Source: Acidimicrobiales bacterium
GTDB lineage: Bacteria; Actinomycetota; Acidimicrobiia; Acidimicrobiales; Aldehydirespiratoraceae
Reading direction: 5' to 3'
DNA length: 64,000 nt
Assembly: GCA_029247365.1 (NCBI GenBank)
Contig: JAQWLJ010000032.1
Location: forward strand, 1,679 to 65,678
The position numbers were made by a program, and so were the translations under genes. Of the stretch, positions 37,353-49,977 are shown one piece after another. The first letter of the stretch is position 1. Each line of letters begins with the position of its first letter. Below the pieces are notes generated by a model. The model did not search any database. It worked only from the letters and a program-made list of their open reading frames with translations, and was not told where the DNA came from.

Positions 37353-38369
37353 ATGAGTCGCCTCATCTTTCGTCAGGAAGAACTCCTCGGCAATCACGAC
37401 TACGCCGAGCAGCACATCGTGCTCGGTGAACGACTGCATGGTGGCCTCCTCGCCGACGGCACCTACCAGCCCCCGCGAGCGCTCGTTCGCGAACCTGCCC
37501 TCGATGCTTGGGAGGCGGCTCTGCGGGAACGGGGTGGCGAGCCGTTCAGGGCCACTTCGCAGCTCCTTGAAGGGTTGCGGATGCCGACTGCCGAACAGCA
37601 ACTGGTGTTGCTTCGCAATGGTCTCGGCGAGTCATTTTGGAACTCGCTGACCATCACCGGGAAGATCGAGGCCCGAGGCCGCCTCCTTGCCGAGATGACG
37701 TTCCCCGACCTCCAAGACGGCATCGTCGAGGACATCTCCGAGATGGCGATCGGCCACCTCAAGAAAGGTCTGCTCCTCGCTCACGGCATCGATGAGGGTG
37801 GTGAACCAGACAATGGCATCGGTGGCCATGACGCGATGTGGTTCGCCGCCCGCGATCTTGCGTTCGGTGCCGAAGCGTTCCCTGATGTCGACCCGCCGGA
37901 AAACATTGGTCGCCCGGACGCCGGTACCCGCCGGGTCCCCGAGGTGCCGTCAGAGATCGAGGGCATGGTCTCGTTTCTTGCCAACCTGTTGATCATCGAG
38001 TTTCGAGCTGAGCTCGGGTTCGCCGACAGCCAGCACATTCTTCGCACCTCCGAGGTGTTCCGTGACCGACGCGAGGGCGCTGAGCTCGCCGCGGACATCA
38101 TCGGTCGTATCCGCATCGATGAAGCGATCCACGTCCGGTCACTCAACATCTACCTCGGTGAGCTGCGTTCGGTCACCTTCCGGTCGATCGACGGCGGCAC
38201 GGTGAGCGGCGCCGAGTTGATCGATCGGTTCTGGGCCGGTCTCGTCCGCTGGGCAACGGTCGAGCAGCCGAAGCTGGCAGCGGCCGAGCAACGTCAGGTG
38301 CTCGAGGATCGCATCGCGAAGCACGGTGAGGCCGAGCGGGTGCTGGCCGAGTTCGACGCCGCGGCCTGA
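37353..38369 (+). CDS. Conserved hypothetical protein, probable ferritin-like diiron fold
   Basis: Helical protein with HGIDE..GH, IEFRAE and IRIDEAIH (DExxH) motifs. Confidence 0.6.
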   Translation: MSRLIFRQEELLGNHDYAEQHIVLGERLHGGLLADGTYQPPRALVREPALDAWEAALRERGGEPFRATSQLLEGLRMPTAEQQLVLLRNGLGESFWNSLTITGKIEARGRLLAEMTFPDLQDGIVEDISEMAIGHLKKGLLLAHGIDEGGEPDNGIGGHDAMWFAARDLAFGAEAFPDVDPPENIGRPDAGTRRVPEVPSEIEGMVSFLANLLIIEFRAELGFADSQHILRTSEVFRDRREGAELAADIIGRIRIDEAIHVRSLNIYLGELRSVTFRSIDGGTVSGAELIDRFWAGLVRWATVEQPKLAAAEQRQVLEDRIAKHGEAERVLAEFDAAA

Positions 38370-38379
38370 CGCGACCCGC

Positions 38380-38859
38380 TCAGCAGGCGTTGTCGCCGGC
38401 GACGATCGGCCGGCGATACGTGATGCCGGTCGGTCGCTCGTAGCCCGCGTGAGCCGTGCGGTCGACCTCGCGAAACCCGAGCGCCTCGAACGTGCGCTGG
38501 TTGTCGCGCAGTTCGATACGGACCTCGAGTTCGAGCCATTGGAGGCCGAGCTCGACGGCCCGTGCCTCGGCGTGGTCCATCAGCGCCCGCGCCAGTCCCT
38601 CGCCCTGCCGACCCGCGGCGACGGCGAGCTTTCCGATGTAGAGCGAGTCGGACCGCGGCGTGAGCACCACACAGGCCCCGATCGGGTCGTCGATCACCCA
38701 GGCCTCGCCGGGTCCCGCCGCCAGCTGTGCCACGGTCAGCCGGTGCACCGACGACGGCGGGTCGATCACGCCATCCATGTACGCGAACGCTTCCCGGATC
38801 AGCTCGTACATGGCGGCGAGCTCCGGTTCGTCTGCTGCCGTGAGGCGTCTGGGCTTCAC
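38380..38859 (-). CDS. GNAT family N-acetyltransferase
   Basis: LYIGKLAV..RQGEGLARAL, N..TFEALGF. Confidence 0.88.
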   Translation of the reverse strand: MKPRRLTAADEPELAAMYELIREAFAYMDGVIDPPSSVHRLTVAQLAAGPGEAWVIDDPIGACVVLTPRSDSLYIGKLAVAAGRQGEGLARALMDHAEARAVELGLQWLELEVRIELRDNQRTFEALGFREVDRTAHAGYERPTGITYRRPIVAGDNAC

Positions 38860-38889
38860 GATCGGGAGTGTAGATCCGGGTGCCGGAGG

Positions 38890-39948
38890 TCAGGCCGGGG
38901 CGTCGATGCGAAAGAGCTGCGCCGGATTGCCGACGATGAGCGTCCGTACGTCTTCATCACTGAGCCCCCGCTCTCGGAGCCGCGGCACCACATTGGTGAT
39001 GAGGTGGTCGTACCCGAGTCCCCCGTACGCGTGCAACCGGTGCTTGGTAGCGATGTCGTGCGAGAGCAGCGCCTGCTCCTCCAAGCCGTTTTCGAAGTGC
39101 CAGAGAACGACGTCCATCCGCTCCGCGTCCGACGGCATGTCGACCTTCGGGTTGGGCGGGTACCAGGAGCTCTCGTTGCCGAAGAGGTCGTACTCGAGCG
39201 ACACGCCGGTCGAGGCCAGTTCGGCGAGCCACCCCCGATCGATGCACGTCCGGTCGATGTGGCAGATCGTGGTTCGAGTCAGGTCGCCGCCCTCCTCGGC
39301 GACGATCTCCGCGATCTCGACGGGTGAGTCCGGGTCGCGTCCCGGATGGACCATGAGCGCCGCGCCGGTCGCCCGTTGCGCGGCGACAGCGGCGCGCAGG
39401 CTCTTCTTCTCGTTCGGGAGCCACGGATACGTACATCCGATCTCGCCGATGAGACCCGCCCGAACCCCGGAGTCGCCGATCCCGACCGTGAGGTCGCGGA
39501 TGATCTCTGCGGCGATGTCATCGACCGACCGCTCGGCCATGTCGCTTGGATGGGTGCCCCCGAGGTAGTACCCCGCACCGATGAGGATGTTCACGCCGCT
39601 GGCCTCGGCGATTCGCGCCAACGGCGCCGGATCCCGCCCGAGGCCGTTGTTGGTGGGGTCGATCACCGTCCGCCCACCGGCGGCGGCGAAGCGTTTGAGC
39701 TCGCGGATCGCGAGTTCCTCGGAGTCGAGTTGCACGTTGTGGTGGTTCGACGTCCAGTGGTAGGCGACCCAACCGCGGTTCTCGAGGGTGATCTCCTCGT
39801 CGGCGAGGGGTTGGTCGGCTGCCGTCGGCGGATCGACGTACATGAACGAGCCGTCCATCAAGACGTGGTCGTGCGCGAGCGTGATCCCCAACTCGGCGAC
39901 CGGGACGGGCCCGAGCACCGTTTGCGCAACGCCCTGGTGACTGCTCAG
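38890..39948 (-). CDS. Phosphotriesterase-related (PTER-like) amidohydrolase; start uncertain, probably CTG at 39948
   Basis: QTVLGP, TLAHDH, GLIGEIG, VHPGR, CHIDR, LEYDLFG, SHDIATK, YGGLGY, NP. Confidence 0.88.
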   Translation of the reverse strand: MSSHQGVAQTVLGPVPVAELGITLAHDHVLMDGSFMYVDPPTAADQPLADEEITLENRGWVAYHWTSNHHNVQLDSEELAIRELKRFAAAGGRTVIDPTNNGLGRDPAPLARIAEASGVNILIGAGYYLGGTHPSDMAERSVDDIAAEIIRDLTVGIGDSGVRAGLIGEIGCTYPWLPNEKKSLRAAVAAQRATGAALMVHPGRDPDSPVEIAEIVAEEGGDLTRTTICHIDRTCIDRGWLAELASTGVSLEYDLFGNESSWYPPNPKVDMPSDAERMDVVLWHFENGLEEQALLSHDIATKHRLHAYGGLGYDHLITNVVPRLRERGLSDEDVRTLIVGNPAQLFRIDAPA

Positions 39949-40337
39949 GACAGCACCACCCGTGCGCTGATCTCGACGAGGAGGCCCTCGAACGCGAGAT
40001 CGACACCGCCGACGACCGTGGCCGACGGGCCCGGAGCGTTGAAGAACTCCTGGCGGGCCTGGCCGGCGGCCGGCCGGTAGCGAATGTCGGTCAGGAAGAT
40101 GTCGAGCGACACGACGTCGTCGAGCGTGCCGCCCGCGGCTGTCACGTAGCTCTCGATGTGCTGGAGGCACTGGCGGCACTGCTCGAGCGGATCGTTGGGT
40201 CCGACGAGCTCGCCGTCGTCCATCGAGATCTGACCGGAGATGAACAGCAGGTCGCCCTTCCGGATGCACTGCGACCCGGCCCGCGGATCCGGCGGCTCAC
40301 CGACGTTGGGAATCGAGATGTTCTCGCGGGTCGCCAT
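39945..40337 (-). CDS. Rid (RidA/YjgF/YER057c/UK114) family protein
   Basis: LLFISGQI, AGGTLDDVV, RQEFF..PGPSATVV, LLVEISA. SD GAGGAG. Confidence 0.88.
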   Translation of the reverse strand: MATRENISIPNVGEPPDPRAGSQCIRKGDLLFISGQISMDDGELVGPNDPLEQCRQCLQHIESYVTAAGGTLDDVVSLDIFLTDIRYRPAAGQARQEFFNAPGPSATVVGGVDLAFEGLLVEISARVVLS

Positions 40338-40349
40338 GATGGGTTCTCC

Positions 40350-41516
40350 TCAGCCTGCCGAATCCGGTCCGATCACGTGATCGAGAACGTAGTTGGAGAA
40401 CTCGTGCACGGTCCGCTCCTCGCTGGGCGAGTAGCGCGCGAGGCTCGGCAGCCGGCCTCGGAGTCCTCGCTGCACGACCTCGCAGATGCCCTTGTCCTCC
40501 GCCAGGAACAGATCCATCGATGGGTAGTACCGCTTGTCGGCGTCGGTCTCGAAGTTCGGCAGATCGATCGTCGACTGCGGGAAGCAACACCACGAGACGA
40601 TGCGGGTCCACTCGGGTCCATCGGGGAAGTACTGGTGGAACGTGATCCGGTCGGGCGGAACGTTCAGCAGCAGGTGCGGGTAGTGGATCATGAAGTGCGT
40701 GGTCTCTCGATCCTCCTCGGAGAGCCCTACGACGAACGGCAACGTCGCATTGCGGGGCACGTACAAGCCGTTCTCGTTGTCGCTGCTGCTGCACGCCCAC
40801 ACCATCGGCTCACCCATCGGCCGAAAGGCGCTCCGGACCGCACCCGGATAGAAGGTGTCGAGCGACTCGCGATGCACGGTGCGGACGTGGTAGCCCTCGC
40901 GGGAGTTCTCGACCCAGATCTTCCAGTTGGCGTTGAAGCGGTTCTCCCACTTCTTCGTGACCTTCATTTCCTCCATGCGGTAGGGGGCGAGGCGTTCGAC
41001 GAGCGAGCCGAGCGATGTGAGCAGCGGCACGGCATCAGCGTCGAAGTTGATGAACACGAAGCCAGCCCAGGTCTCGACCCGCACCGACGGCAGGCCGTGG
41101 TCGGCCTTGTTGAAGTCGAGCGCGTCGTTCATCGACGGCGCGGCGCGGAGCGCTCCGTCGAGGCCGTAGGTCCAGGCGTGGTACGGACAGGTGATGTTGC
41201 GACAGTTCCCGCTACCCGTGAGGAGCTCGGAGCCGCGGTGGCGACACGAGTTAGAGAGAGCCCGTATCTCGCCGTCGTCGCCGCGGATGATCACGAGCGG
41301 CTCCCCGATGATGTTCAGCTGGACGTAGTCGCCCGGGTTCGGGAGTTCCTCCTCTCGGGTGGCGACGAGCCATCCCGTGCGAAAGATCGTGTCGATCTCG
41401 CGGTCGTACCAGTCCTGCGAGAAGTAGACCTCGGGCGGGAGTGGCGAGGCTTCCTCGATCGGCAGCCGCGTCGCGGCGTATCGCTCCGGCGAGAAGATGT
41501 CGGTATCGGCAGCCAT
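40350..41516 (-). CDS. Rieske non-heme iron oxygenase alpha subunit (choline/carnitine/betaine monooxygenase-like)
   Basis: CRHRG...CPYHAW Rieske motif, NWKIWVENSREGYHVRTVH Fe site, ED...CE.VQRGL. Confidence 0.9.
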   Translation of the reverse strand: MAADTDIFSPERYAATRLPIEEASPLPPEVYFSQDWYDREIDTIFRTGWLVATREEELPNPGDYVQLNIIGEPLVIIRGDDGEIRALSNSCRHRGSELLTGSGNCRNITCPYHAWTYGLDGALRAAPSMNDALDFNKADHGLPSVRVETWAGFVFINFDADAVPLLTSLGSLVERLAPYRMEEMKVTKKWENRFNANWKIWVENSREGYHVRTVHRESLDTFYPGAVRSAFRPMGEPMVWACSSSDNENGLYVPRNATLPFVVGLSEEDRETTHFMIHYPHLLLNVPPDRITFHQYFPDGPEWTRIVSWCCFPQSTIDLPNFETDADKRYYPSMDLFLAEDKGICEVVQRGLRGRLPSLARYSPSEERTVHEFSNYVLDHVIGPDSAG

Positions 41517-41550
41517 GAGCCCTCCCGGCTCGATAGTAGTGGGGCATCTG

Positions 41551-42885
41551 TCAGCCCATCCCGGCCGTCACGCCGGGGATCCACGATGTCCCCGCAAGCG
41601 GCACCTTGGCCATCGCGGCCGCCTCGACCGTTAATGCGGCGAGGTCCTCCGGTTCGAGATTGTGTACGTGTGACTTGCCGTTGGCCCGAGCCAAGGTTTG
41701 GACCTCAAGCGTCAGGACCTGCAGATAGTTGGCCAGCCGCCGCCCGGCGATCTCTGGATCGAGCCGCTTGGCCAGCATCGGGTCCTGCGTGGTGATGCCC
41801 GCAGGGTCGTTGCCCGCCTGGTAGTCCTCCCACATGCCGGCTGCGCTACCGACCGACCGGTACCCGTCGTCGTGACGGGGCGCATTGTCGCCGAGTGCGA
41901 TGAGGGCGGCCGTGCCGATGGACACTGCATCGGCACCGAGCGCGATTGCCTTGGCGACATCGGCCCCCGAACGAATACCGCCGGCTGCGATCAGCTTGAT
42001 CTCACGATGGACACCGAGGTCCTTCAGGGCTCTCACTGCCTCGGGAATGGCGGCGATGGTCGGAATGCCGACGTGTTCGATGAAGACTTCCTGAGTAGCT
42101 GCGGTTCCGCCCTGCATGCCATCGACCACCACGCAGTCGGCGCCGGCTTTCACCGCAAGTGCGGTGTCGTAATACGGCCGCGCTGCGCCGACTTTCACAT
42201 AGATGGGTACTTCCCAGTCGACGACCTCGCGGAGTTCGAGGATCTTGATCTCGAGGTCGTCGGGCCCCGTCCAGTCCGGGTGCCGGCAGGCCGACCGCTG
42301 ATCGATGCCCTCGGGCAGCGCTCGCATGCGAGCAACCCGCTCCGTGATCTTCTGCCCGAGCAGCATGCCACCACCGCCCGGCTTCGCCCCCTGTCCGACA
42401 ACAACCTCGATCGCGTCGGCCTTGCGAAGGTCGTCGGGGTTCATGCCGTAACGCGACGGAAGGTACTGGTAGACGAGCGTCTTGGAGTGGCCGCGCTCCT
42501 CAACGGTCATGCCGCCGTCACCGGTGGTCGTGGACGTTCCAGCTGCGTTGGCACCGCGACCGAGCGCCTCCTTCGCCTGTGCCGAAAGCGATCCGAAGCT
42601 CATTCCAGCGATCGTGATCGGGATTTCGAGGTGAACGGGGCGTTCGGCGCGACCTTCCCCAATCACGACGTCGGTGGCACACGCCTCGCGGTAGCCCTCA
42701 AGGGGGTAGCGCGACATCGACGCACCAAGCAGCACGAGATCGTCGAACGTCGGGAGTTGCCGCTTCGCCCCGAATCCGCGAATCCGGTAAATGCCTGTGT
42801 TCGCGGCCCGCTGGATCTCTGCGATCGTGTTGCGGTCGAACGTATAGGACTCGCGATGATGCCACTGCTGCTCGTCCATCGTCAT
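41551..42885 (-). CDS. mgsC: N-methylglutamate synthase FMN-binding subunit (GlxD/MgsC)
   Basis: GASMSRYPLEGYRE, AGMSFG, GQGAKPGGGGMLLGQK, DQRSACRHPDWTGPDDL, DPAGITTQDP. Confidence 0.9.
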   Translation of the reverse strand: MTMDEQQWHHRESYTFDRNTIAEIQRAANTGIYRIRGFGAKRQLPTFDDLVLLGASMSRYPLEGYREACATDVVIGEGRAERPVHLEIPITIAGMSFGSLSAQAKEALGRGANAAGTSTTTGDGGMTVEERGHSKTLVYQYLPSRYGMNPDDLRKADAIEVVVGQGAKPGGGGMLLGQKITERVARMRALPEGIDQRSACRHPDWTGPDDLEIKILELREVVDWEVPIYVKVGAARPYYDTALAVKAGADCVVVDGMQGGTAATQEVFIEHVGIPTIAAIPEAVRALKDLGVHREIKLIAAGGIRSGADVAKAIALGADAVSIGTAALIALGDNAPRHDDGYRSVGSAAGMWEDYQAGNDPAGITTQDPMLAKRLDPEIAGRRLANYLQVLTLEVQTLARANGKSHVHNLEPEDLAALTVEAAAMAKVPLAGTSWIPGVTAGMG

Positions 42886-43571
42886 ACTCCTTTCGCCTGC
42901 TCGGCTGCGATGTCGTCGACGTGGAAGGTGTACAGGTTTCGGTCCGAGCCGTAGCGGCGAAACTCGCCGGCCGATCCGCCGAGGCCGGCTGCATCGAGCA
43001 AGCCGTTGAGCACCTCGACGTGCTCTGGCCGCATCTCCTTCTCGACACAGTCAGCGCCGAGCGACGCGACACTGCCCCGCACGAAGATGCGGGTCTCGTA
43101 GAGCGAGTCACCGAGGTCGTGATCGGCATCGCCCAGCACCACCAGGTTGCCGGCCTGCCCCATGAAACCGCTCATGTGACCGACATTGCCTCCGACGACG
43201 ATGTCCACCCCTTTCATGGAGATCCCGCAGCGGGCCCCCGCGTTACCTTCGATGACGAGGAGGCCACCACAACCGGTCGCTCCCGCGGACATCGTGGCGT
43301 TGCCGGTGAGCCGCACTGTCCCCGACATGATGTTTTCCGCGAATCCGGTGCTGGCGTTGCCGCTGAGGCGAATCGTGCCCTTCTGGTGCATGCCGGCGCA
43401 GTAGTAGCCGACGGAACCGTGGATCTCGACGTCGATGTCTGCGTCGATCCCGGCGGCGACCGCATGGGCACCGCGTGGATTGTGCACTTCGTAGTGGGCG
43501 TCGCGAGGCCGGTGGAGTTCTGCGTTGAGCTCCCGCACGGTGCACTCCGCCAGGTCGAAGGTCGTGGTCAT
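42882..43571 (-). CDS. mgsB: N-methylglutamate synthase GXGXG subunit (GlxC/MgsB)
   Basis: GSVGYYCAGM, RCGISMKG, GHMSGFMGQAG, GDSLYE, SLGADC, YGSDRNLY. Confidence 0.9.
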   Translation of the reverse strand: MTTTFDLAECTVRELNAELHRPRDAHYEVHNPRGAHAVAAGIDADIDVEIHGSVGYYCAGMHQKGTIRLSGNASTGFAENIMSGTVRLTGNATMSAGATGCGGLLVIEGNAGARCGISMKGVDIVVGGNVGHMSGFMGQAGNLVVLGDADHDLGDSLYETRIFVRGSVASLGADCVEKEMRPEHVEVLNGLLDAAGLGGSAGEFRRYGSDRNLYTFHVDDIAAEQAKGV

Positions 43572-44467
43572 GACGCCAAGCTCCAGGTGTAGACGCGGGC
43601 TGGTTCGGGCTCAAAGATCTCGGCGTCGTCGACGCCGGGAAGGCGAGCGATGGCCCGATACTCCGACGACATCGCCACCCAGTCATCGGTTTCGGCAACG
43701 ACCGCCGGTTTGCAGGAGATCGGATCACGCAAGATCGCGAATCCGCTCTCGATGCCGATGGCGAAGGTGTAGAAGCCGTCGAGGTCGACCAAGGAACGCT
43801 CGAGCGCTTCGTCGAGTGTGTCGCCCTCGGCGAGCCGCCATGCGAGGAACCCGGCGGCGACCTCCGTGTCATTCTCGGTCTGGAACGACTCTCCGTGGCG
43901 GACGAGTCGTTCGCGAAGTTGGTTGTGGTTGGAGAGCGAACCATTGTGCACGAGGCAGGTGTCGGCGCCCGTAGCGAACGGGTGTGAGCCGTTGGTAGTG
44001 ATTGCGGACTCGGTCGCCATGCGGGTGTGGGCGATGGCATGAGTGCCCGTGCGCGCTGCAAGGTCGTAGCGCGTTGCGACGAGGTCGGGATCACCCACCG
44101 ACTTGTACAACTCGATCTGACGGCCGTAGCTCAACACGTCAAGCCCGCCACCATTGTCGATCAACCACTGGCGGGCGAGGCGGCCGTCGCCGGTGGTCTC
44201 GAAGACCGCGTGGTCGAGCACCGGTCGGGCTACGACTTCGGCATCGAGGTACGCGGCTAGGACGTCGGCCGTCTTGTTCCAGTCAGGCTGGTGCCCCTCG
44301 GCCAGCGCCGTGATTCGCGTGCGGCCCGGCGTTCCCTCGTCATAGACTGCGAAGCCGGCGCTATCGGGGCCGCGCTCGCGCATCTCGTGGAGCATGACCG
44401 CGGTCAGGCGACCGAGTTCATGGCGATGTCGATCGGTCTTCAGAAACAATCCAACGATCCCGCACAT
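43568..44467 (-). CDS. mgsA: N-methylglutamate synthase Ntn-amidotransferase subunit (GlxB/MgsA)
   Basis: MCGIVGLF (Cys1 nucleophile), RGPDSAG, HTRMATES, HNGSLSNH, ENDTEV, DLDGFYTF. Confidence 0.9.
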   Translation of the reverse strand: MCGIVGLFLKTDRHRHELGRLTAVMLHEMRERGPDSAGFAVYDEGTPGRTRITALAEGHQPDWNKTADVLAAYLDAEVVARPVLDHAVFETTGDGRLARQWLIDNGGGLDVLSYGRQIELYKSVGDPDLVATRYDLAARTGTHAIAHTRMATESAITTNGSHPFATGADTCLVHNGSLSNHNQLRERLVRHGESFQTENDTEVAAGFLAWRLAEGDTLDEALERSLVDLDGFYTFAIGIESGFAILRDPISCKPAVVAETDDWVAMSSEYRAIARLPGVDDAEIFEPEPARVYTWSLAS

Positions 44468-44505
44468 CTTGCACACTCCTCACGACCCCGTGCCAGCAGG
44501 GGCGC

Positions 44506-44552
44506 ACCCTAGTCCGACACTTTGACATTGGTGAAGTTCCTTCACCTAGGGT
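44506..44552. promoter_or_regulatory. Divergent mgsA/gmaS promoters sharing a palindromic operator
   Basis: + strand TTGACA (44522-27), N19, TAGGGT (44547-52). - strand TAGGGT at 44511-44506. Perfect GGTGAAG-TTC-CTTCACC at 44530-44546. Confidence 0.7.
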
Positions 44553-44606
44553 AGAGATGGTCTCGTCAGCTTCGGTGAGGGACACGAACGCAGGAGGGAA
44601 CTGTAC

Positions 44607-45968
44607 GTGGGGGACTACGAAGACATCAGGGCACGAATCGAGGCCGACGGCGTCGAGTACATCTATGCGATGTTCGTCGAGATGCACGGGAAGCCGTGCG
44701 CCAAACTCGTGCCAGTCGAGGCGCTCGATGACCTCATGAGCGACGGCGCCGGGTTCGCCGGGTTCGCGGCGGGCCCCATCGGCCAGGATCCGTCTCACCC
44801 CGACATCCTCGCTATCCCTGACCCGGCCTCGTACACGCAGTTCCCCTGGCAGCCCAATGTCGCAGCGATGCAGTGCGATCCCACCGTCGATGGAGCGCTG
44901 TGGCCCTACGCGCCGCGCGTCATCCTTCGGCAAGCGCTCGAGCGACTCGAGGCCGACCGCAACCTTGTGTTGAAGACCGGTGTCGAAGCCGAGTACTCAC
45001 TGGTCGTTCGAAATGAGGACGGGTCACTCGCAGTCGCCGACGAACGCGACGTTGACGCGCTCCCCTGCTACGACGCTCGGGCCCTTACCCGAATGCTGCC
45101 GCATCTCACCGAGGTCTCCAAGAACCTCAATGCCATGGGCTGGGGTAACTACGCCAACGATCACGAGGACGCCAACGGGCAGTTCGAGCAGAACTGGCGC
45201 TATGCCGACGCGCTCACCACCGCCGATCGCCTGATCGTATTCCGGCTCATGATTCACACGATGGCGCAGCGCGACGGTCGCTATGCGACCTTTATGCCAA
45301 AGCCGTTCACCGACAAGACCGGCAACGGCCTGCACGCGCACCTCAGCCTCTGGACGGCTGATACTGACGAACCGTTGTTTATCGGTGGCGACGACGACAG
45401 CAAAGGGCTTGGCCTCAGCGAGATGGCGTACCACTTTGCCGGCGGCCTCATCGACCACGCGCCAGGCCTGGCCGCAGTTGCGTGCCCGATCGTGAATTCG
45501 TACAAGCGCATGGGGGTAGGCGCGCCAACATCAGGCGCCACCTGGGCGCCGGCCTACGCAGCCTTCGGCGGCAACAACCGCACCCAGATGATCAGAGTTC
45601 CCGAAGCCGACCGCCTCGAGATCCGGGTAGGAGACGGGGCGGCTAATCCCTATCTCATGTTCGCAGCCATGCTGGCGTGTGGTCTTGACGGTGTCGACAA
45701 CGCCACCGACCCGGGTGAACCAAACACCGCCAATCTGTACACGCTTCCGGCCGACGAGGTCGCTCGGCGCGGGATTGTGGCGCTCCCGAGGACGCTGGTT
45801 CATGCAGCCGAAGCACTCGAGGCAAACGACGTTCTTGGCGCCGGCCTCGGCATGACGCCCGACGGGCCGTACCGCGACTACTTCGCGGAGGTGAAGCGGG
45901 ACGAGTTCTTCGCACACCATCACGAAGTCACCGCCGGCGAGGTCCAGCACTATCTCACGATGTTCTGA
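44607..45968 (+). CDS. gmaS: Gamma-glutamylmethylamide synthetase (GlnT-type glutamine synthetase homolog)
   Basis: AKLVP, GAGFAGFA, CYD, NDHEDANGQFEQN, FMPKPF, NSYKR, SGATWAP, GNNRTQMIR. Divergent from mgsABC. Confidence 0.85.
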   Translation: MGDYEDIRARIEADGVEYIYAMFVEMHGKPCAKLVPVEALDDLMSDGAGFAGFAAGPIGQDPSHPDILAIPDPASYTQFPWQPNVAAMQCDPTVDGALWPYAPRVILRQALERLEADRNLVLKTGVEAEYSLVVRNEDGSLAVADERDVDALPCYDARALTRMLPHLTEVSKNLNAMGWGNYANDHEDANGQFEQNWRYADALTTADRLIVFRLMIHTMAQRDGRYATFMPKPFTDKTGNGLHAHLSLWTADTDEPLFIGGDDDSKGLGLSEMAYHFAGGLIDHAPGLAAVACPIVNSYKRMGVGAPTSGATWAPAYAAFGGNNRTQMIRVPEADRLEIRVGDGAANPYLMFAAMLACGLDGVDNATDPGEPNTANLYTLPADEVARRGIVALPRTLVHAAEALEANDVLGAGLGMTPDGPYRDYFAEVKRDEFFAHHHEVTAGEVQHYLTMF

Positions 45969-45984
45969 GCCAGCAGCCCAAACC

Positions 45985-46593
45985 ATGACCGATGATGACA
46001 TCCCTTCGGCGCTCACTGGCGAGGACGTCTGTCGGATCGTCGGTCGGCGAGTCCGCGAGCGCCGCGCTGACCTCGGCCTGACCATGGAGCAGCTCGCCGA
46101 TGCGGCTGGCATATCGATTGGCATGCTGTCCAAGATCGAGAACGGACAGACCTCACCGAGCTTTTCGACGCTGACTGCGCTTGCCCACGCCGCCCACGTC
46201 CCATTCACCACATTCTTCCGTGGTCTCGACGAGGAACACGACGCCGTCCTCATTCGGCGGGGGCAGGGCCTTCGAATCGAGCACGAGGGTGGTGGCTCGG
46301 GGCGGACCTACGAGGATCTCGGCTCACTTCGCGGTCCACTTCGCGAGATCGAGCCGGTGTTGATCACCATCACGGAACCCGACGAGGTCTTCCCCCTCTT
46401 CCAGCACGCCGGTGTGGAGTTCCTTCACATCATCGAGGGCGTGATGGAGTACGGGTACGGCTCCAACCGCCACGTCTTGCACCCGGGTGACACCATCCAG
46501 TTTCGCGGCGATGTCGCCCACGGTCCGGTAGCACTCGTCGAGCTACCCATAAGGTTTCTTTCGCTGAAGGTTTACGCCCACCGCGAGACCTAA
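45985..46593 (+). CDS. XRE-family HTH regulator with C-terminal cupin
   Basis: LTMEQLADAAGISIGMLSKIENGQTSPS, FPLFQHAGVEF, HGP. Confidence 0.9.
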   Translation: MTDDDIPSALTGEDVCRIVGRRVRERRADLGLTMEQLADAAGISIGMLSKIENGQTSPSFSTLTALAHAAHVPFTTFFRGLDEEHDAVLIRRGQGLRIEHEGGGSGRTYEDLGSLRGPLREIEPVLITITEPDEVFPLFQHAGVEFLHIIEGVMEYGYGSNRHVLHPGDTIQFRGDVAHGPVALVELPIRFLSLKVYAHRET

Positions 46594-46611
46594 GCGGTCT
46601 CCGCTCGGCAC

Positions 46612-46964
46612 GTGAGTCTCGAGTGGGAACAGGTCACGGTCGACGCAGGCGACCCGGGAAGTCTCGGCACTGGCGGGCGAAAGCGCTCGGCTGGACGGTC
46701 GTCGACGAAGGTGCGGAGGTTGTTGAGATTCGACCAGCCCCCGACCGAACGCCGGGGATCCTCTTCCTGTTGAGCAACGACGTCAAGAAAGCCAAGAACC
46801 GACTGCATCTCGACTTCCGGCCCAACAACCAGACCGCCGAGGTCGACCGGCTTTTGGGCCTTGGGGCATCGAGGATCGACATTGATCAGGGCAGCGTTTC
46901 GTCGGTCGTGCTCGCCGATCTCGAAGGCAATGAGTTCTGCGTTTTGCGCGAGAGTTCCGACTAG
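46612..46964 (+). pseudogene. VOC/glyoxalase-like protein with a 1-nt frameshift near 46668
   Basis: GTG 46612 gives MSLEWEQVTVDAGDPGSLG. WRAKALGW...KNRLHLD...LADLEGNEFCVL continues in the -1 frame. Confidence 0.75.
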
Positions 46965-47026
46965 CAAGCGCACACAGCAGTGCGGCGCTGCGCCGTGAGT
47001 TCGACCCCCCACTATGGTCGCCGTCG

Positions 47027-48376
47027 ATGCCGTCCTCGAAGAACGTCGCAGTCATCGGCGCCGGGGCCGCAGGGTTGGTGACGGCTCGCCAGCTCAAACG
47101 GGTCGGCCTCTCCCCTGTCGTCTTCGAAGCCGAACCGGCACTCGGCGGAACCTGGACCTACACCGAAGACGTGGAGACCGACCCGCTCTCTGTTGCCCCC
47201 GATCGGGAGCGGATCCACACCTCGATGTACGCCAACCTCCACACCAACTTGCCGCGCGACCTGATGGCCTTCAGGGAATATCCTTTCGATGCTCGCGGTG
47301 GCGGGGAGGACTTCTGGCCTCGTTTTCCGGCCCACGCCCAGGTATTGACGTATCTGTCTCGCTACGCCGCCCACTTCGAGGTGAATGCCCACATCCGCTT
47401 TGACACGAAGGTGGAGTCGGTTCTCCCGCTCGGTGCCACCGGGGGGGGCGGAGCTGATAGCGAGGATCTCACAACGTGGCTGGTCCGCTCCAGCAACCCC
47501 GACACCGGTCCTCAGGAAGAACACTTCGACGCGATCGCTGTCTGCAACGGCCACTTCAGCGTTCCTAAGGTGCCGGACCTACCGGGAGCATCATCCTTTG
47601 GTGGTTTCGGGCTGCACAGTCACAACTATCGACGGCCGGAGGTGTTTGCCGAGAAAAAGGTCGTTCTTCTCGGCGGCCGGGCGTCGGGGGTCGATATTGC
47701 GATCGAAGTCGCCGAGCATGCGTCCGAGACCGTGATCTGCGCACGAGATGGCCGTACCGGCCAGTCGCTCCCCGGTTGCAGCGACATCCAGGTACGGCCT
47801 GCGATCGAGCGTTTCGACGGCGATGATGTCGTCTTGACCGATGGCGGCCGCATCGAGTCCGTCGACGTGCTTGTGTACTGCACGGGGTACCAGTACGCCC
47901 TGCCGTTCTTGGCGAACTCCAGCAGCGTCAAGGTCGACGAGGGCTGGATTCACCCGCTGTACCTCGATCTGTTTTCCTCGGTGACGCCGTCGCTCGGGTT
48001 CATTGGGCTTGGCAACATGATCATCCCGTTTCCCCAATACGAACTGCAGGCTATGGCGTTTGCCGCGGTCGTTGGCGGGACAGTTTCGCTGCCAAGTCGA
48101 GCGGAACGCGAACGCGCAACCCAGGAACACGAGGCCGTCTTACGGGGCGACAGTGTCCCGGAGCGACATTTTTTGACCCAGGGCGACGAGCAATTCGCCT
48201 ATAACGACCTGCTCGCCGATCATCTTGGAATCGAACGGATCTCGCCGAACTTTGAGGCGATATATCACGCTGTCCAGCGGGCAAGGATGCGGGACCTGAA
48301 GCGCTACCGCCTCGAACCACTGCCCTGGCTCGACCCCGAGTACGGGCGCCGCGGTCACGCTGCGCCCCCCGTTTAA
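47027..48376 (+). CDS. Flavin-containing monooxygenase (class B FMO)
   Basis: VIGAGAAG, GGTW, SMYANLHTNLPR, CNGHFSVP, FMO fingerprint FGGFGLHSHNY, GGRASGVD, YCTGY. Confidence 0.9.
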   Translation: MPSSKNVAVIGAGAAGLVTARQLKRVGLSPVVFEAEPALGGTWTYTEDVETDPLSVAPDRERIHTSMYANLHTNLPRDLMAFREYPFDARGGGEDFWPRFPAHAQVLTYLSRYAAHFEVNAHIRFDTKVESVLPLGATGGGGADSEDLTTWLVRSSNPDTGPQEEHFDAIAVCNGHFSVPKVPDLPGASSFGGFGLHSHNYRRPEVFAEKKVVLLGGRASGVDIAIEVAEHASETVICARDGRTGQSLPGCSDIQVRPAIERFDGDDVVLTDGGRIESVDVLVYCTGYQYALPFLANSSSVKVDEGWIHPLYLDLFSSVTPSLGFIGLGNMIIPFPQYELQAMAFAAVVGGTVSLPSRAERERATQEHEAVLRGDSVPERHFLTQGDEQFAYNDLLADHLGIERISPNFEAIYHAVQRARMRDLKRYRLEPLPWLDPEYGRRGHAAPPV

Positions 48377-49977
48377 CTCGGCTCGCTCGCCAACCACCGC
48401 ACAGTGGCGTTGTAGGCCATGTCGTGCCCGGACTGGAAGTAGACGAGCAGGACGGAGTCTGACTCTTGCGCGTACACCGGTGCAGGGTCATCGGGACCGA
48501 AGAAGGTCTTGACACGGCTCCAATCCTGAAGGTCACCCGCGACCACCCCGTTGCCGAAGAGGGCAACCTGTCCGGAATTGAGACGGTCCGCTGGATCGGC
48601 GAGTGAGTTGAACACGTCGGCGGCACTGCTCGTGAGCACGAATGGGTCGTTGATGCCTTGTGCAACGAAGACAGGGACCTCGTGCTCCCGTGCTGTATCG
48701 AGATAGGTGATCGGGCTGCGCTTCAGGCACTCGGCCTGGGCCGGCCCCGGGATTGTCGGGTTGCCTCCGCACGCCGTTGAGATGTGCCTTGTATAGGGGC
48801 GGCCGAACCGGGCCGAGAGCTGGTAGAACTCGATGAGGTCGTGGGTCGGCCCCCACGCCGAGACAGCGGTGACCTTCTCGGGGTGTCGTCCGGCAAGGAG
48901 AAGCGCCATCATCCCGCCACCGGAGTAGCCGACGGCATACACGCGATCGGCATCGACGCCAGCCTGTGCAACCGCGAAGTCGATCGCATCAGCAGCATCT
49001 TGGACAGCCAAATCGGACCCGACTGCGTCTGGGCTGTTGTTTCGGCCGCGGAATTCGGGTGCAATCACCGCCCAGCCGTTCTCCTGGGCCCACATCGCGT
49101 AGGGGATTCCGGCGTGCTGGGTGTAGTCGGCGCTCCACGAATGCAGGATCACGAGAACCGGTTGCTCGTGATCGTCAGTCGGGGGAAGCCAGAAAGCAGG
49201 CTGGTCAGTGCCATCTGCCGTCGACGGGATACGAATATCCTGAATGCCCGGAACTGACGACCTCCAACGGCTGGAGCCGGTGGCAACGAAGTCGCTGAAA
49301 TCCCGGATCGTGCGGAACCCGACGATCGAGTTGAACGTCTCGCATCCGGACGAATCGGGGTCGACGACGACCGCTGGTAGGCGCTTGTACCTGTGGAGGA
49401 ACGCAGCGACTTGACCCCGGGTAACGAAAGCGTCGGGTTCGAACGTCGTTTCCGAGGTCCCGAACGTGATGCGCTGCTCCAGCATCCATCCGATGGCGGT
49501 GACCTGCCAAGGCGTCACCACATCAGTGAACTGGTCCGGGGCCGGTGCGCCAGGGGTTCCTTCCAGACGGTGAAGGAATACTGCGAACTCGCCTCTCGTG
49601 AGGTCGTCATCGGGCGAGTAGGTGGTCGGGGTCGTACCGAACGTGATGCCATTGTTGAACATCCACGCCACTGCTTCCTGCTGCCAGTCGGACACGACAT
49701 CGACAAATCCATGGGTATCGCTAGGGGGAGGAGAGCCCTCCATGCGCCACAGGAACGCAGCCACCTGCCCGCGAGTGACAGGATCAGCCGGGCTGAAACA
49801 CTTCGGCGATGTTCCCATTGTGATCTCACTGTCGACCATCCATTGAACGGCCTCGGTGTAGTACCTCCCTGACGCGACATCGCCAAAGCCCGCCACGCCC
49901 GCCACCGGGGCTACCGACGTCATGCTGGTCGTCATTATCGCTAAACCAAGTGCGACAGCCAGCGTTCGACGCGTCAT
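48373..49977 (-). CDS. Secreted SLH-domain protein with C-terminal S9-like alpha/beta hydrolase
   Basis: Signal peptide, three SLH repeats (FSP...TRGQVAAFL), LHSWS, GYSGGG nucleophile, GHD. Confidence 0.85.
   Translation of the reverse strand: MTRRTLAVALGLAIMTTSMTSVAPVAGVAGFGDVASGRYYTEAVQWMVDSEITMGTSPKCFSPADPVTRGQVAAFLWRMEGSPPPSDTHGFVDVVSDWQQEAVAWMFNNGITFGTTPTTYSPDDDLTRGEFAVFLHRLEGTPGAPAPDQFTDVVTPWQVTAIGWMLEQRITFGTSETTFEPDAFVTRGQVAAFLHRYKRLPAVVVDPDSSGCETFNSIVGFRTIRDFSDFVATGSSRWRSSVPGIQDIRIPSTADGTDQPAFWLPPTDDHEQPVLVILHSWSADYTQHAGIPYAMWAQENGWAVIAPEFRGRNNSPDAVGSDLAVQDAADAIDFAVAQAGVDADRVYAVGYSGGGMMALLLAGRHPEKVTAVSAWGPTHDLIEFYQLSARFGRPYTRHISTACGGNPTIPGPAQAECLKRSPITYLDTAREHEVPVFVAQGINDPFVLTSSAADVFNSLADPADRLNSGQVALFGNGVVAGDLQDWSRVKTFFGPDDPAPVYAQESDSVLLVYFQSGHDMAYNATVRWLASEPS

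Follow-up and report, generated by a model that had tools for sequence, protein, structure and literature searches.

The locus lies in a 64-kb stretch of DNA (the window) from a bacterium of the class Acidimicrobiia and consists of nine genes, all of which are present and whose domains were confirmed by Pfam and NCBIfam (Table 1); those named in a preliminary description were found where it had placed them. The gmaS gene and the gene for an XRE-cupin regulator run in the same direction, divergently from mgsABC. A consensus scan, which is uninformative for this phylum, detected no promoter in the spacer before mgsA. For mgsA, the ATG at 44467 gives an N-terminal Met-Cys and an alternative GTG is located at 44476. 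Reading of the sequence also bore out the two overlaps within mgsABC, the distance from mgsC to the Rieske gene, a gap of 12 bp between the Rieske and Rid genes and a 4-nt overlap of Rid with the PTER-type gene. At this last overlap, the PTER frame contains no ATG, GTG or TTG; instead, a CTG codon overlaps the Rid stop (CTGA), and the next canonical start is a GTG at 39918. Since orthologous PTER genes have TTG, GTG or CTG at exactly the same place, the overlapping CTG is likely to be the start. The GNAT gene is located 30 bp beyond PTER on the same strand and is flanked by an 18-nt inverted repeat. It shares the unusual base composition of the Rieske-Rid-PTER cassette, and no GNAT match was found beside the cassette at its other loci.

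Table 1. Genes and intergenic features of the gmaS-mgsABC and Rieske-Rid-PTER region, with positions in the window.
Feature	Position	Strand	Evidence or remark
XRE-type HTH + cupin regulator	45985..46593	+	Pfam HTH_3 + Cupin_2; directly 3' of gmaS
gmaS, gamma-glutamylmethylamide synthetase	44607..45968	+	TIGR03105, 563 bits (cut-off 469.6)
mgsA-gmaS divergent intergenic region, 139 bp	44468..44606	.	Sequence read
mgsA, class-II glutamine-amidotransferase-like N-methylglutamate synthase subunit	43568..44467	-	Pfam GATase_6/7
mgsB, GXGXG subunit	42882..43571	-	Pfam PF01493; 4-nt overlaps with mgsA and mgsC
mgsC, FMN glutamate-synthase-like subunit	41551..42885	-	Pfam Glu_synthase FMN domain, 310 bits
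mgsC/Rieske spacer, 34 bp; TACTAT and GGGAGG ribosome-binding site; left edge of the compositionally foreign block	41517..41550	-	Sequence
Rieske non-haem iron oxygenase, alpha-only, group-V-like, ENSREGYHV	40350..41516	-	PF00355 Rieske + PF00848 Ring_hydroxyl_A
Rid-family protein without RidA catalytic arginine	39945..40337	-	Pfam PF01042
PTER-type binuclear-metal amidohydrolase, probable CTG start over the Rid stop	38890..39948	-	PF02126 (PTE), 244 bits
GNAT acetyltransferase	38380..38859	-	Pfam Acetyltransf_1

The identities of gmaS and mgsABC were upheld by TIGR03105, Pfam and PDB matches. The best PDB matches of GmaS are the Rhodovulum enzyme RhGmaS (7cql), with E 1e-116, and a 'glutamate--methylamine ligase' (9qur), with E 5e-112; true glutamine synthetases reach only about 1e-56. 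Six of the seven methylamine-site residues named in PMC7948447 are conserved, Gln175 of RhGmaS being Ala here. In seven relatives, mgsA is 75-82% identical and the gmaS-mgsABC locus is present without the trio in every case; an XRE-cupin gene follows gmaS in three of them (L112, L114 and L118; 66-74% identity). Of the 107 genomes of the family, 64 have an mgsC orthologue of at least 83% identity, a base rate of 60%, and the copy of the gammaproteobacterial MAG G511 is 75% identical. Together, gmaS with the XRE-cupin gene and the divergent mgsABC are a resident N-methylglutamate module. Gene set, order and domain composition are those of the known gmaS-mgsABC(-mgdABCD) systems of Methylocella, Methyloversatilis and marine Roseobacter-group bacteria, the GmaS structure being from Rhodovulum sp. 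12E13 (PMC7948447), whereas the host is here a marine acidimicrobiian and mgd-type genes are on other contigs. As had been claimed, the window contains neither mgdABCD nor a Rieske reductase; both were found elsewhere in the genome, with sox/mgd-type genes on contigs C49 and C23 and an FNR-[2Fe-2S] reductase on C25. GmaS would thus ligate methylamine to glutamate and MgsABC would turn the product into N-methylglutamate, which would probably be oxidized by the sox/mgd-type genes of another contig. Methylated-amine oxidation genes do gather at the mgs locus in this family, since two of the relatives, L115 and L116, have group-V-like Rieske genes other than that of the cassette close to mgs.

The cassette and the GNAT gene are compositionally foreign in this genome. 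With the 1399 long ORFs of the genome as reference (mean GC3 0.772, sd 0.032), GC3 reaches 0.877 in the Rieske gene (99.9th percentile), 0.901 in Rid, 0.873 in PTER and 0.863 in GNAT (99.6th percentile), so that all four are at or above the 99.6th percentile; values for mgsABC, gmaS and the XRE gene are typical (0.764-0.817, with 0.780 for mgsC and 0.789 for gmaS). Seven other loci (G022, G472, G473, G488, L119, G511 and G530) carry the trio with unchanged gene order and 66-92% protein identity, L119 being a metagenome contig whose end cuts the PTER gene. At an eighth, G471 (L206), nothing but the Rieske gene is seen, at a contig end. Rieske orthologues of the eight loci are 67-77% identical. 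G511 and G530 are gammaproteobacterial MAGs; the GC content of their cassette loci is 38-40%, and a divergent LysR gene is conserved next to the cassette. In the family, the cassette was found in 6 of 107 genomes (1 of 16 in the genus), and it was absent from 400 other genomes sampled in the class and from 401 Rhodobacteraceae. About 85 homologue clusters exist at 58% identity or more.

The trio had been proposed to extend the methylamine locus, and a neighbourhood search did not bear this out. Neither mgs nor gmaS is adjacent at any of the eight other loci, six of which have 6.8-9.6 kb of upstream flank. In the five other cassette genomes of the family (G022, G471, G472, G473 and G488), mgsC is on a different contig, and G530, a MAG that may be incomplete, shows no mgsC at E 1e-150 or better and no gmaS at E 1e-60 or better. 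The neighbours differ from genome to genome: Entner-Doudoroff genes; ugp/glpD; an enoyl-CoA hydratase gene; FMO-like and molybdoenzyme genes; DinB and omega-aminotransferase genes. The extension is not supported, as the cassette stands alone at eight other loci, is missing from the gmaS-mgsABC loci of all seven relatives and has a foreign GC3, and the combined pathway is unproven because the cassette stands apart from methylamine genes in all other genomes examined. Literature searches found no paper on gmaS/mgs combined with Rieske-Rid-PTER, in agreement with the novelty that had been put forward.

The Rieske oxygenase is group-V-like by its sequence. Its best PDB match is CntA (E 1e-43) and its best NCBIfam model GbcA, but at 164 bits for a cut-off of 670. 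Like the group V enzymes CntA (carnitine), GbcA/BmoA (glycine betaine) and Stc2 (stachydrine), it is alpha-only (PMC7948474, PMC10952381), and it has in common with them the Rieske Cys/His ligands, the His-His-Asp iron site and the previously noticed bridging Glu, which aligns at the position of CntA E205. The motif reads ENSRE-G-YH where Stc2 has ENNRE-C-YH. On the other hand, identity to group V does not exceed 33-35%, and there is neither a Cys-x-x-Cys pair nor an adjacent reductase gene. A betaine substrate had been considered; this reading is weakened because the signature residue at position 203 is Ser, instead of the Tyr/Phe of clade Va or the Asn of clade Vb described in PMC7948474.

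The amidohydrolase is closest to 9efa, a 'phosphotriesterase-related protein' (E 8e-80, about 40% identity over 340 residues as counted from the alignment), followed by 3k2g (E 4e-71), with lactonase-type PTEs at about E 1e-36. From its residue numbering, 9efa appears to be the sponge PTER, whose structure is described in PMC12873775; PTER is the animal hydrolase of N-acetyltaurine and also of N-acetyl-beta-alanine. The six Zn ligands, Tyr131 and the sulfonate-binding Arg209, Arg238 and Tyr268 of the sponge enzyme are all conserved, and the helical insertion called PTER-specific in the same report aligns without a large gap. Unlike in sponge PTER, the proposed proton donor His305 is Ala and the channel residues Phe34 and Phe270 are Gly and Pro, which probably widens the access channel and changes the proton donor. 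Moreover, the gene is bacterial, and its operon partners encode an oxygenase and a Rid protein.

Alignments of the Rid protein to 3k0t and 2dyy place Pro-Ser-Ala where RidA has its catalytic arginine, the Ala is invariant in eight orthologues, and TIGR00004 scores 51.6 bits for a cut-off of 106. In the Rut pyrimidine pathway, RutA is a flavin oxygenase, RutB an amidohydrolase with an isochorismatase fold and RutC a Rid protein. The likeness is an oxygenase, an amide hydrolase and a Rid protein in one operon; however, no protein of the cassette is orthologous to its Rut counterpart, with a Rieske in place of a flavin oxygenase and a PTE in place of an isochorismatase fold. RutC is a 3-aminoacrylate deaminase (PMC8113886), and the Rid protein reaches 38 bits against the RutC model (cut-off 169). 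Imine hydrolysis by the Rid protein, a step of the earlier proposal, is doubtful because the arginine on which RidA-type enzymes depend for this reaction (PMC4433059) is replaced by Ala.

The locus is rather probably made of two units of different origin set end to end, the resident gmaS/mgs module and then a recently acquired mobile cassette that would act on a small anionic N-substituted compound. Rieske-Rid-PTER, joined here by GNAT, would be a self-contained, horizontally mobile catabolic cassette recently inserted just behind mgsC. The PTER-type enzyme may cleave the N-acyl amide of a small sulfonate- or carboxylate-bearing amine (N-acetyltaurine-like or N-acetyl-beta-alanine-like), a substrate class that rests on homology to the animal enzyme; this counts against the reading, as do the replacements of His305 and of the two channel phenylalanines. 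The Rieske oxygenase, with a reductase from elsewhere, could hydroxylate the carbon beside the nitrogen, resulting in demethylation or C-N cleavage, and the arginine-less Rid might take the carbinolamine or iminium product, without an alpha-carboxylate. Read-through from the mgs operon into the cassette is probable in this strain and would be an accident of insertion rather than a conserved pathway design. The cassette is an uncharacterised unit that is worth testing.

It had been suggested instead that the cassette attacks an N-methylated compound and frees methylamine for GmaS/MgsABC, the seven to eight genes forming one pathway here; this we consider unlikely. Substrates envisaged were a betaine, an N-methyl heterocycle or an N-methylamide; an N-acyl-N-methyltaurine would be a further example. 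The suggestion draws on the affinity of the Rieske protein to enzymes for N-methylated zwitterions and on the junction itself, where the cassette follows mgs on the same strand with its own ribosome-binding site. An RNA-library contig of run X17 spans this junction, and the library also contains fragments of the cassette, of mgs and of gmaS, but a contig is no proof of a single transcript, and the RNA library may contain DNA. The short spacer and this contig fit co-transcription with mgs and thus count against two separate units. Of the eight genomes that carry the cassette, seven have an orthologue of mgsC at some position, and together with the contig this makes a functional link to methylamine possible in this strain. 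All six cassette genomes of the family have mgsC, the overall figure being 64 of 107 (one-sided Fisher test, p 0.04; p 0.07 when this genome is left out), a test that overstates the association because four of the six belong to one genus; G511 also has mgsC, a gene present in only 5 of 41 relatives. Both observations speak against the two-unit reading, as does the gathering of methylated-amine oxidation genes at the mgs locus of the family. Against the single pathway stand the lack of adjacency at eight other cassette loci and seven other mgs loci, the cassette of G530 with no mgsC or gmaS detected at the above thresholds in this possibly incomplete MAG, the mgsC base rate, the foreign composition and the LysR gene of the gammaproteobacterial copies. 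In addition, group-Vb-type chemistry converts N-methyl groups to formaldehyde, not methylamine (PMC7948474).

The homarine operon homABCDER feeds N-methylglutamate dehydrogenase, bringing a marine N-methyl compound to the N-methylglutamate node, and is a precedent for extra catabolic modules depending on this pathway (PMC13236597). Homarine yields N-methylglutamate directly, not methylamine, and the text of that report does not contain 'Rieske', 'RidA', 'oxygenase' or 'amidohydrolase'.

Somewhat less probable still is a role in aromatic or heteroaromatic degradation unrelated to small amines, with a ring-hydroxylating oxygenase, a PTE-type lactonase and a 2-aminomuconate-deaminase-like Rid. 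The Pfam Ring_hydroxyl_A match, PDB matches of the Rieske protein to biphenyl, nitrobenzene and naphthalene dioxygenases (about E 1e-30), the 2-aminomuconate deaminase 6izh among the Rid matches (E 1e-6), the lactonases of the PTE family and a phospho-furanose lactonase model listed by NCBIfam are in its favour. Nevertheless, there is no beta-subunit gene, the bridging Glu is as in group V, naphthalene-type dioxygenases align over the N-terminal half only, and the amidohydrolase is far closer to PTER, with its anion-binding residues, than to lactonase-type PTEs. Finally, the idea that the Rieske oxygenase oxidatively demethylates N-methylglutamate or gamma-glutamylmethylamide in place of the missing MgdABCD is very improbable: the window has no mgd genes, the slot after mgsC in relatives holds N-methyl-amine oxidases (819-aa DAO-GCV_T proteins in L116 and L117, a SoxA-like protein in L118) and ENSRE resembles the ENNRE of Stc2, which demethylates N-methyl amino acids (PMC10952381), but the genome carries on C49 a SoxA-like orthologue (70% identical to that of L118) beside SoxD, with another SoxD locus on C23 and a pair of DAO-GCV_T orthologues on C43, and the cassette is present in G530, where gmaS/mgs were not found, and always travels with Rid and PTER, needless for such a role.

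At the junction, a metagenome DNA contig from runs X1 and X2, which seem to be a single data set, covers 41376-42212; this data set is possibly the source sample of the window, in which case it is not independent support. In the window and at L095 and L205, TAC-n-n-T hexamers precede the start by 16-24 nt.

The cassette of Rieske oxygenase, Rid and PTER-type amidohydrolase genes that lies behind mgsC is probably an independent unit inserted next to a resident methylamine module. ORF listing together with Pfam and NCBIfam recovered every gene named in the preliminary description, and its spacings were right: a 34-bp gap carrying TACTAT and GGGAGG precedes the Rieske gene, 12 bp precede the Rid gene and 4-nt overlaps join the mgs genes. 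Most of its part identities also stood, the doubtful points being a Rid that hydrolyses imines and the link of the Rieske protein to quaternary amines. The window has 64% G+C and belongs to a genome of 3.1 Mb in 75 contigs that is 98% complete. In a protein database search the nearest named homologues of the Rieske protein were Acidimicrobiales MAGs, and the stretch is present in marine, seawater and estuary metagenomes from 13 studies, both of which are consistent with a marine Acidimicrobiales placement.

Features of the methylamine locus, the cassette and their surroundings in the window
Feature	Position	Strand	Basis or remark
338-aa protein	37353-38369	+	
Inverted repeat, first arm	38353-38370		3' end of the 338-aa gene
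GNAT	38380-38859	-	downstream of the amidohydrolase gene, same strand
Inverted repeat, second arm	38889-38906		3' end of the PTER gene, stop codon included
PTE-family amidohydrolase (PTER-type)	38890-39948	-	ORF listing, Pfam, NCBIfam
Rid	39945-40337	-	ORF listing, Pfam, NCBIfam
Rieske oxygenase	40350-41516	-	ORF listing, Pfam, NCBIfam
mgsC	41551-42885	-	ORF listing, Pfam, NCBIfam
mgsB	42882-43571	-	ORF listing, Pfam, NCBIfam
mgsA	43568-44467	-	ORF listing, Pfam, NCBIfam
gmaS	44607-45968	+	ORF listing, Pfam, NCBIfam
XRE-cupin regulator	45985-46593	+	ORF listing, Pfam, NCBIfam
Flavin monooxygenase	47027-48376	+	directly behind the regulator
S9/alpha-beta hydrolase	48373-49977	-	three S-layer-homology repeats

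The methylamine module is a resident, ordinary and known system. Its GmaS scores 563.4 bits against the type III GS/GmaS model TIGR03105 (cut-off 469.6), and its bit score is about twice as high to GmaS structures (7cql, Rhodovulum GmaS, 394 bits; 9qur, 'glutamate--methylamine ligase', 378 bits) as to any glutamine synthetase (at most 193 bits). The accessible text of PMC7948447 gives the methylamine pocket of RhGmaS as Tyr147, Gln175, Asp177, Glu179, Glu186, Asn188 and Lys30'; read from the alignment, 6 of these 7 residues are kept and Gln175 is replaced by Ala, and the identity proposed for gmaS is borne out. Three consecutive genes beside gmaS encode a class-II GATase with an N-terminal Cys, a GXGXG protein and an FMN glutamate-synthase domain (Pfam). 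By this domain set, the 4-nt overlaps and an equivalent locus in 7 relatives, they are assigned, as proposed, to N-methylglutamate synthase (mgsABC). The divergent gmaS/mgsABC locus was present in all 7 relatives with fetched loci, at 64-89% protein identity, with the XRE-cupin gene behind gmaS in 3 of them. An mgsC orthologue of at least 83% identity occurs in 64 of 107 family genomes, and a further mgsC paralogue, about 54% identical, occurs in most of the family (G016-G021, e.g. G018:C1:2840477-2841766) but is missing from the window's genome. In relatives the slot behind mgsC is filled by DAO-FAO_M-GCV_T proteins of 819 aa (loci L116 7101-9560 and L117 13288-15747) or by a SoxA-like protein (L118 11334-14180), likely oxidisers of N-methylglutamate or sarcosine. 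This half of the locus adds only one more marine actinobacterial example.

The genes that occupy the slot here differ in composition. Third-position G+C is 0.780 in mgsC, 0.817 in mgsB, 0.793 in mgsA, 0.789 in gmaS and 0.764 in the XRE gene; it reaches 0.877 in the Rieske gene, 0.901 in Rid, 0.873 in PTER and 0.863 in the adjoining GNAT gene. Set against the genome's long ORFs (n = 1399; mean 0.772, sd 0.032), none of these four genes falls below the 99.6th percentile. Since the shift covers four genes and its break is located in the 34-bp mgsC/Rieske spacer, the block is read, from its composition, as a recent insertion behind mgsC. A repeat search for insertion scars found no direct repeats flanking 38380-41550. 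The only repeat it found is an 18-nt inverted repeat around the GNAT gene, with 17 of 18 positions complementary, possibly a scar left by recombination or a terminator that is shared. A gene for a 338-aa protein, which has a good coding signal and zero family matches in Pfam or NCBIfam, converges on the GNAT gene.

Eight further loci contain orthologues of the Rieske protein, at 67-77% identity. These comprise four genomes of another genus in the family (G022, G471, G472 and G473, the contig of G471 ending inside the Rieske gene), G488 from a third genus, the 2.4-kb metagenome contig L119, whose end truncates the PTER gene, and two gammaproteobacterial MAGs of 38-40% G+C (G511, locus L009; G530, locus L213). 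The Rieske-Rid-PTER order is kept in 7 of the 8, counting the partial PTER gene of L119. Inheritance and transfer thus involve the trio as a whole, and the cassette is compact, horizontally mobile and exchanged between phyla. Its neighbours change from place to place: LysR and Entner-Doudoroff genes in L009, LysR and ugp/glpD genes in L213, an enoyl-CoA hydratase 13 bp upstream in L204, DinB/MST with an omega-aminotransferase downstream in L095, and an FMO-like gene with a molybdoenzyme in L203 and L205. The omega-aminotransferase was rejected as a conserved neighbour, as it lies downstream only in L095 and L205, within one genus, and scores under every NCBIfam cut-off. The cassette is rare. 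Of 107 family genomes 6 carry it, as does 1 of the 16 in the genus; it was not found in a sample of 400 others from the class or in 401 sampled Rhodobacteraceae, in many of which only the top 4 candidates per genome were scored. Despite this last count, the record of an isolate, Roseovarius sp. ZX-A-9, holds a 69% Rieske homologue. The protein database contains about 85 clusters of Rieske homologues at 58% identity or more, several of them on contigs longer than 100 kb, whose named records include Acidimicrobiales, Woeseiaceae, Paracoccaceae and that isolate. By comparison, the pattern-based locus scans under-sample, each having returned one close relative (L009; L119).

The preliminary description had joined the cassette to gmaS and mgsABC as one pathway that releases methylamine from an N-methyl compound. 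No mgs or gmaS gene was found in the fetched DNA of any of the 8 other cassette loci, six of which include 6.8-9.6 kb upstream of the Rieske gene, which lends no support to the trio being an extension of the methylamine locus. In each of the other five family genomes with the cassette, mgsC and the cassette are on separate contigs. At the genome level, a test of the cassette NEVERTHELESS against the methylamine genes found an mgsC orthologue in 7 of the 8 cassette-bearing genomes. Within the family mgsC is present in 6/6 cassette carriers against 64/107 overall (Fisher one-sided p = 0.04; 0.07 without the window's genome), a test that overstates the association because 4 of the 6 carriers share one genus. 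Among 41 genomes around G511, mgsC occurs in 5 and the cassette in 2, with both in G511 (p = 0.23). In the cassette-bearing G530, whose completeness figure is not given, neither mgsC (threshold E <=1e-150) nor gmaS (threshold E <=1e-60) was found.

Transcription bears on the same question. A metagenome contig covering 41376-42212 has the same mgsC/Rieske junction (runs X1 and X2), although the two runs are apparently one data set, possibly the window's own source sample, and may not be independent support. An RNA-library run, X17, contains pieces of the cassette, mgs and gmaS. One X17 contig carries ten variant positions from 41487 to 41566, whose distance to the contig end drops from 122 to 43, from which it follows that this contig, itself absent from the pieces listed, spans the junction and ends near 41609. 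The contig fits read-through from mgs, although contigs are no proof of a single transcript and DNA can occur in RNA libraries; parts of the stretch uncovered in X17 and X20 are not readable as silence. In the window, L095 and L205, TAC-n-n-T hexamers lie 16-24 nt ahead of the start codon and would equally allow a cassette-borne promoter. A promoter and terminator consensus scan of 38000-47200 returned 0 promoters and 1 weak terminator, below shuffles, and is uninformative for a high-GC actinobacterium. The link between the cassette and the methylamine genes is not conserved across genomes, though one may exist in this genome, read-through and a cassette-borne promoter being both compatible with the data. 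A methylamine-releasing pathway made of the cassette and gmaS/mgsABC would agree with the presence of mgsC in most cassette genomes and with the X17 contig, but it is unlikely, given an adjacency unique to the window's genome and the finding for G530. The proposed seven-gene pathway rests on that adjacency. For the ecology of methylated amines, the lesson is that proximity to gmaS/mgs in a single genome does not define a pathway.

With insertion of an independent cassette as the preferred reading, its three proteins can be taken in turn. The amidohydrolase matches the PDB entries 9efa ('phosphotriesterase-related protein', E 8e-80, about 40% identity by our own count) and 3k2g from Rhodobacter. 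The residue numbering of 9efa fits the sponge PTER of PMC12873775, whose accessible text lists the metal ligands His27, His29, Glu174, His206, His235 and Asp303, the oxyanion residue Tyr131, the sulfonate-binding Arg209, Arg238 and Tyr268, the proposed proton donor His305 and the channel residues Phe34 and Phe270. The window protein resembles it in the metal and anion sites: the six zinc ligands and the tyrosine (His26, His28, Glu169, His201, His230, Asp298, Tyr128) are invariant in 7 sequences, and Arg204, Arg233 and Tyr263 correspond to the sulfonate-binding set. It differs at the proton donor and the channel, where His305 is Ala300, Phe34 is Gly33 and Phe270 is Pro265, as in the orthologues. 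Where the amidohydrolase frame overlaps the Rid gene there is no canonical start codon, and the Rid stop is overlapped by a CTG. At the place equivalent to window 39946-39948, orthologous loci read TTG, GTG or CTG, the N-TG-A overlap showing CTG in 3 of 5 actinobacterial loci and TTG and GTG in the other two (window, L095, L203, L204, L205), so a CTG start coupled to the Rid stop codon is likely; if true, gene callers may miss this kind of start. The substrate of PTER in animals was reportedly found only in 2024, and no physiological role is known to us for its relatives in bacteria; the operon context of the cassette offers a concrete route to one.

The nearest PDB match of the Rieske protein is the carnitine monooxygenase CntA (E 1e-43). 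Its best NCBIfam model, the GbcA equivalog NF058607, gave 164.4 bits against a cut-off of 670 and aligned only residues 24-222; the L009 orthologue reached 175 bits. Against CntA 6y8j, where chain and native numbering differ by 20, it has Glu at E205, His at H208 and H213 and Asp at D323, and the Rieske [2Fe-2S] ligands are present. These ligands, the His-His-Asp site and the bridging Glu are invariant in 8 orthologues, which upholds the bridging Glu noted earlier, and the motif ENSREGYHV is similar to ENNRECYHC of the stachydrine demethylase Stc2. In the accessible text of PMC7948474, Tyr or Phe at position 203 marks clade Va and Asn clade Vb; the window protein and 7-8 orthologues have Ser there. 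The Cys-x-x-Cys pair that lies beside the iron site in some group V members only, according to the accessible text of PMC10952381, is absent, its places being Gly and Val; these traits too are unchanged across eight orthologues. By these residues the protein is group-V-like and falls outside every characterised clade. A quaternary-amine substrate is thus not assumable, and the betaine reading loses ground. The genome holds 13 matches to the protein, itself included (e.g. four at C68:3359-21893 and others on C2, C23, C26, C40 and C46), and one FAD-NAD-[2Fe-2S] reductase was found (C25:14417-15721), which may be common to many oxygenases.

The Rid protein scores 73.3 bits against Pfam PF01042 (gathering score 27.3) and 51.6 bits against TIGR00004 (cut-off 106). 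According to the accessible text of PMC4433059, a conserved Arg (Arg105 of TdcF/RidA) binds the substrate carboxylate and is essential for imine hydrolysis in the RidA and Rid1-3 type, and Rid4-7 are functionally unknown subfamilies without it. Opposite this Arg in 3k0t and 2dyy the window protein has Ala, and Pro-Ser-Ala is invariant at this place in 8 orthologues, which makes a role as imine hydrolase doubtful. Distant group-V-like Rieske genes (about 30-35% identity, under the GbcA cut-off) are accompanied by a Rid gene in 7 of the 79 loci from genomes and in 5 of the 79 from metagenomes. It is directly downstream in six (L020, L037, L057, L064, L143, L153) and beside the Rieske gene in L015, L026, L050, L126, L131 and L139. 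The Arg is absent from all 9 of these twelve Rids that were aligned, with Pro-Val-Ser/Cys-Thr-Gly in its place. This recurrence supports a real partnership and points to a general pairing of Rieske oxygenases with arginine-less Rids. To our knowledge no activity is known for arginine-less Rid proteins, and the pairing gives a testable hypothesis for them.

In the independent cassette the Rieske enzyme would hydroxylate a carbon adjoining nitrogen, with electrons from a reductase encoded elsewhere, the C25 protein being the only one found. Rid may handle a carbinolamine or iminium product without an alpha-carboxylate, and the PTER-type enzyme would split the amide bond of an N-acylated small amine that carries an anionic group. 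A bolder version holds that the cassette encodes an undescribed mobile marine pathway whose substrates are N-substituted omega-amino sulfonates or carboxylates (N-acetyl- or N-methyl-taurine or beta-alanine type), combining group-V-like Rieske C-N cleavage with a new arginine-less Rid subfamily as dedicated partner, captured here behind mgsC so that released methylamine is assimilated on the spot. This version is distinctly unlikely; if true, it would also hint at the role that PTER had ancestrally in bacteria. Aromatic or lactone catabolism by the cassette is decidedly improbable, the amidohydrolase being much nearer 9efa and 3k2g than organophosphate hydrolases or lactonases. That the cassette replaces Mgd is barely credible: orthologues of the relatives' post-mgsC genes (68-70% identity) lie on other contigs of the same genome (C43:82870-85314, C43:90486-92903, C49:33136-35973), with two DAO-GCV_T genes on C43, a 70% identical SoxA-like gene adjoining a SoxD gene on C49 and a second SoxD gene on C23, so the methylamine pathway is completable without the trio.

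No paper on a Rieske-Rid-PTER cassette was found in the literature, supplementary files lying outside the search, and the homarine, trigonelline and N-methyltaurine literature yielded no described pathway with these three families. The homarine operon differs in having none of them. The useful result is the cassette, in which a bacterial PTER orthologue, a Rieske oxygenase and an unusual Rid are combined in a compact unit.

Beyond the regulator, the flavin monooxygenase gene has a place that is not conserved in relatives; its best model is trimethylamine monooxygenase (Tmm), an identity rejected at 170 bits against a cut-off of 675. Next to it is the hydrolase gene with S-layer-homology repeats, and a similar SLH protein is encoded close to the cassette in G022 (L095 12482-14563).
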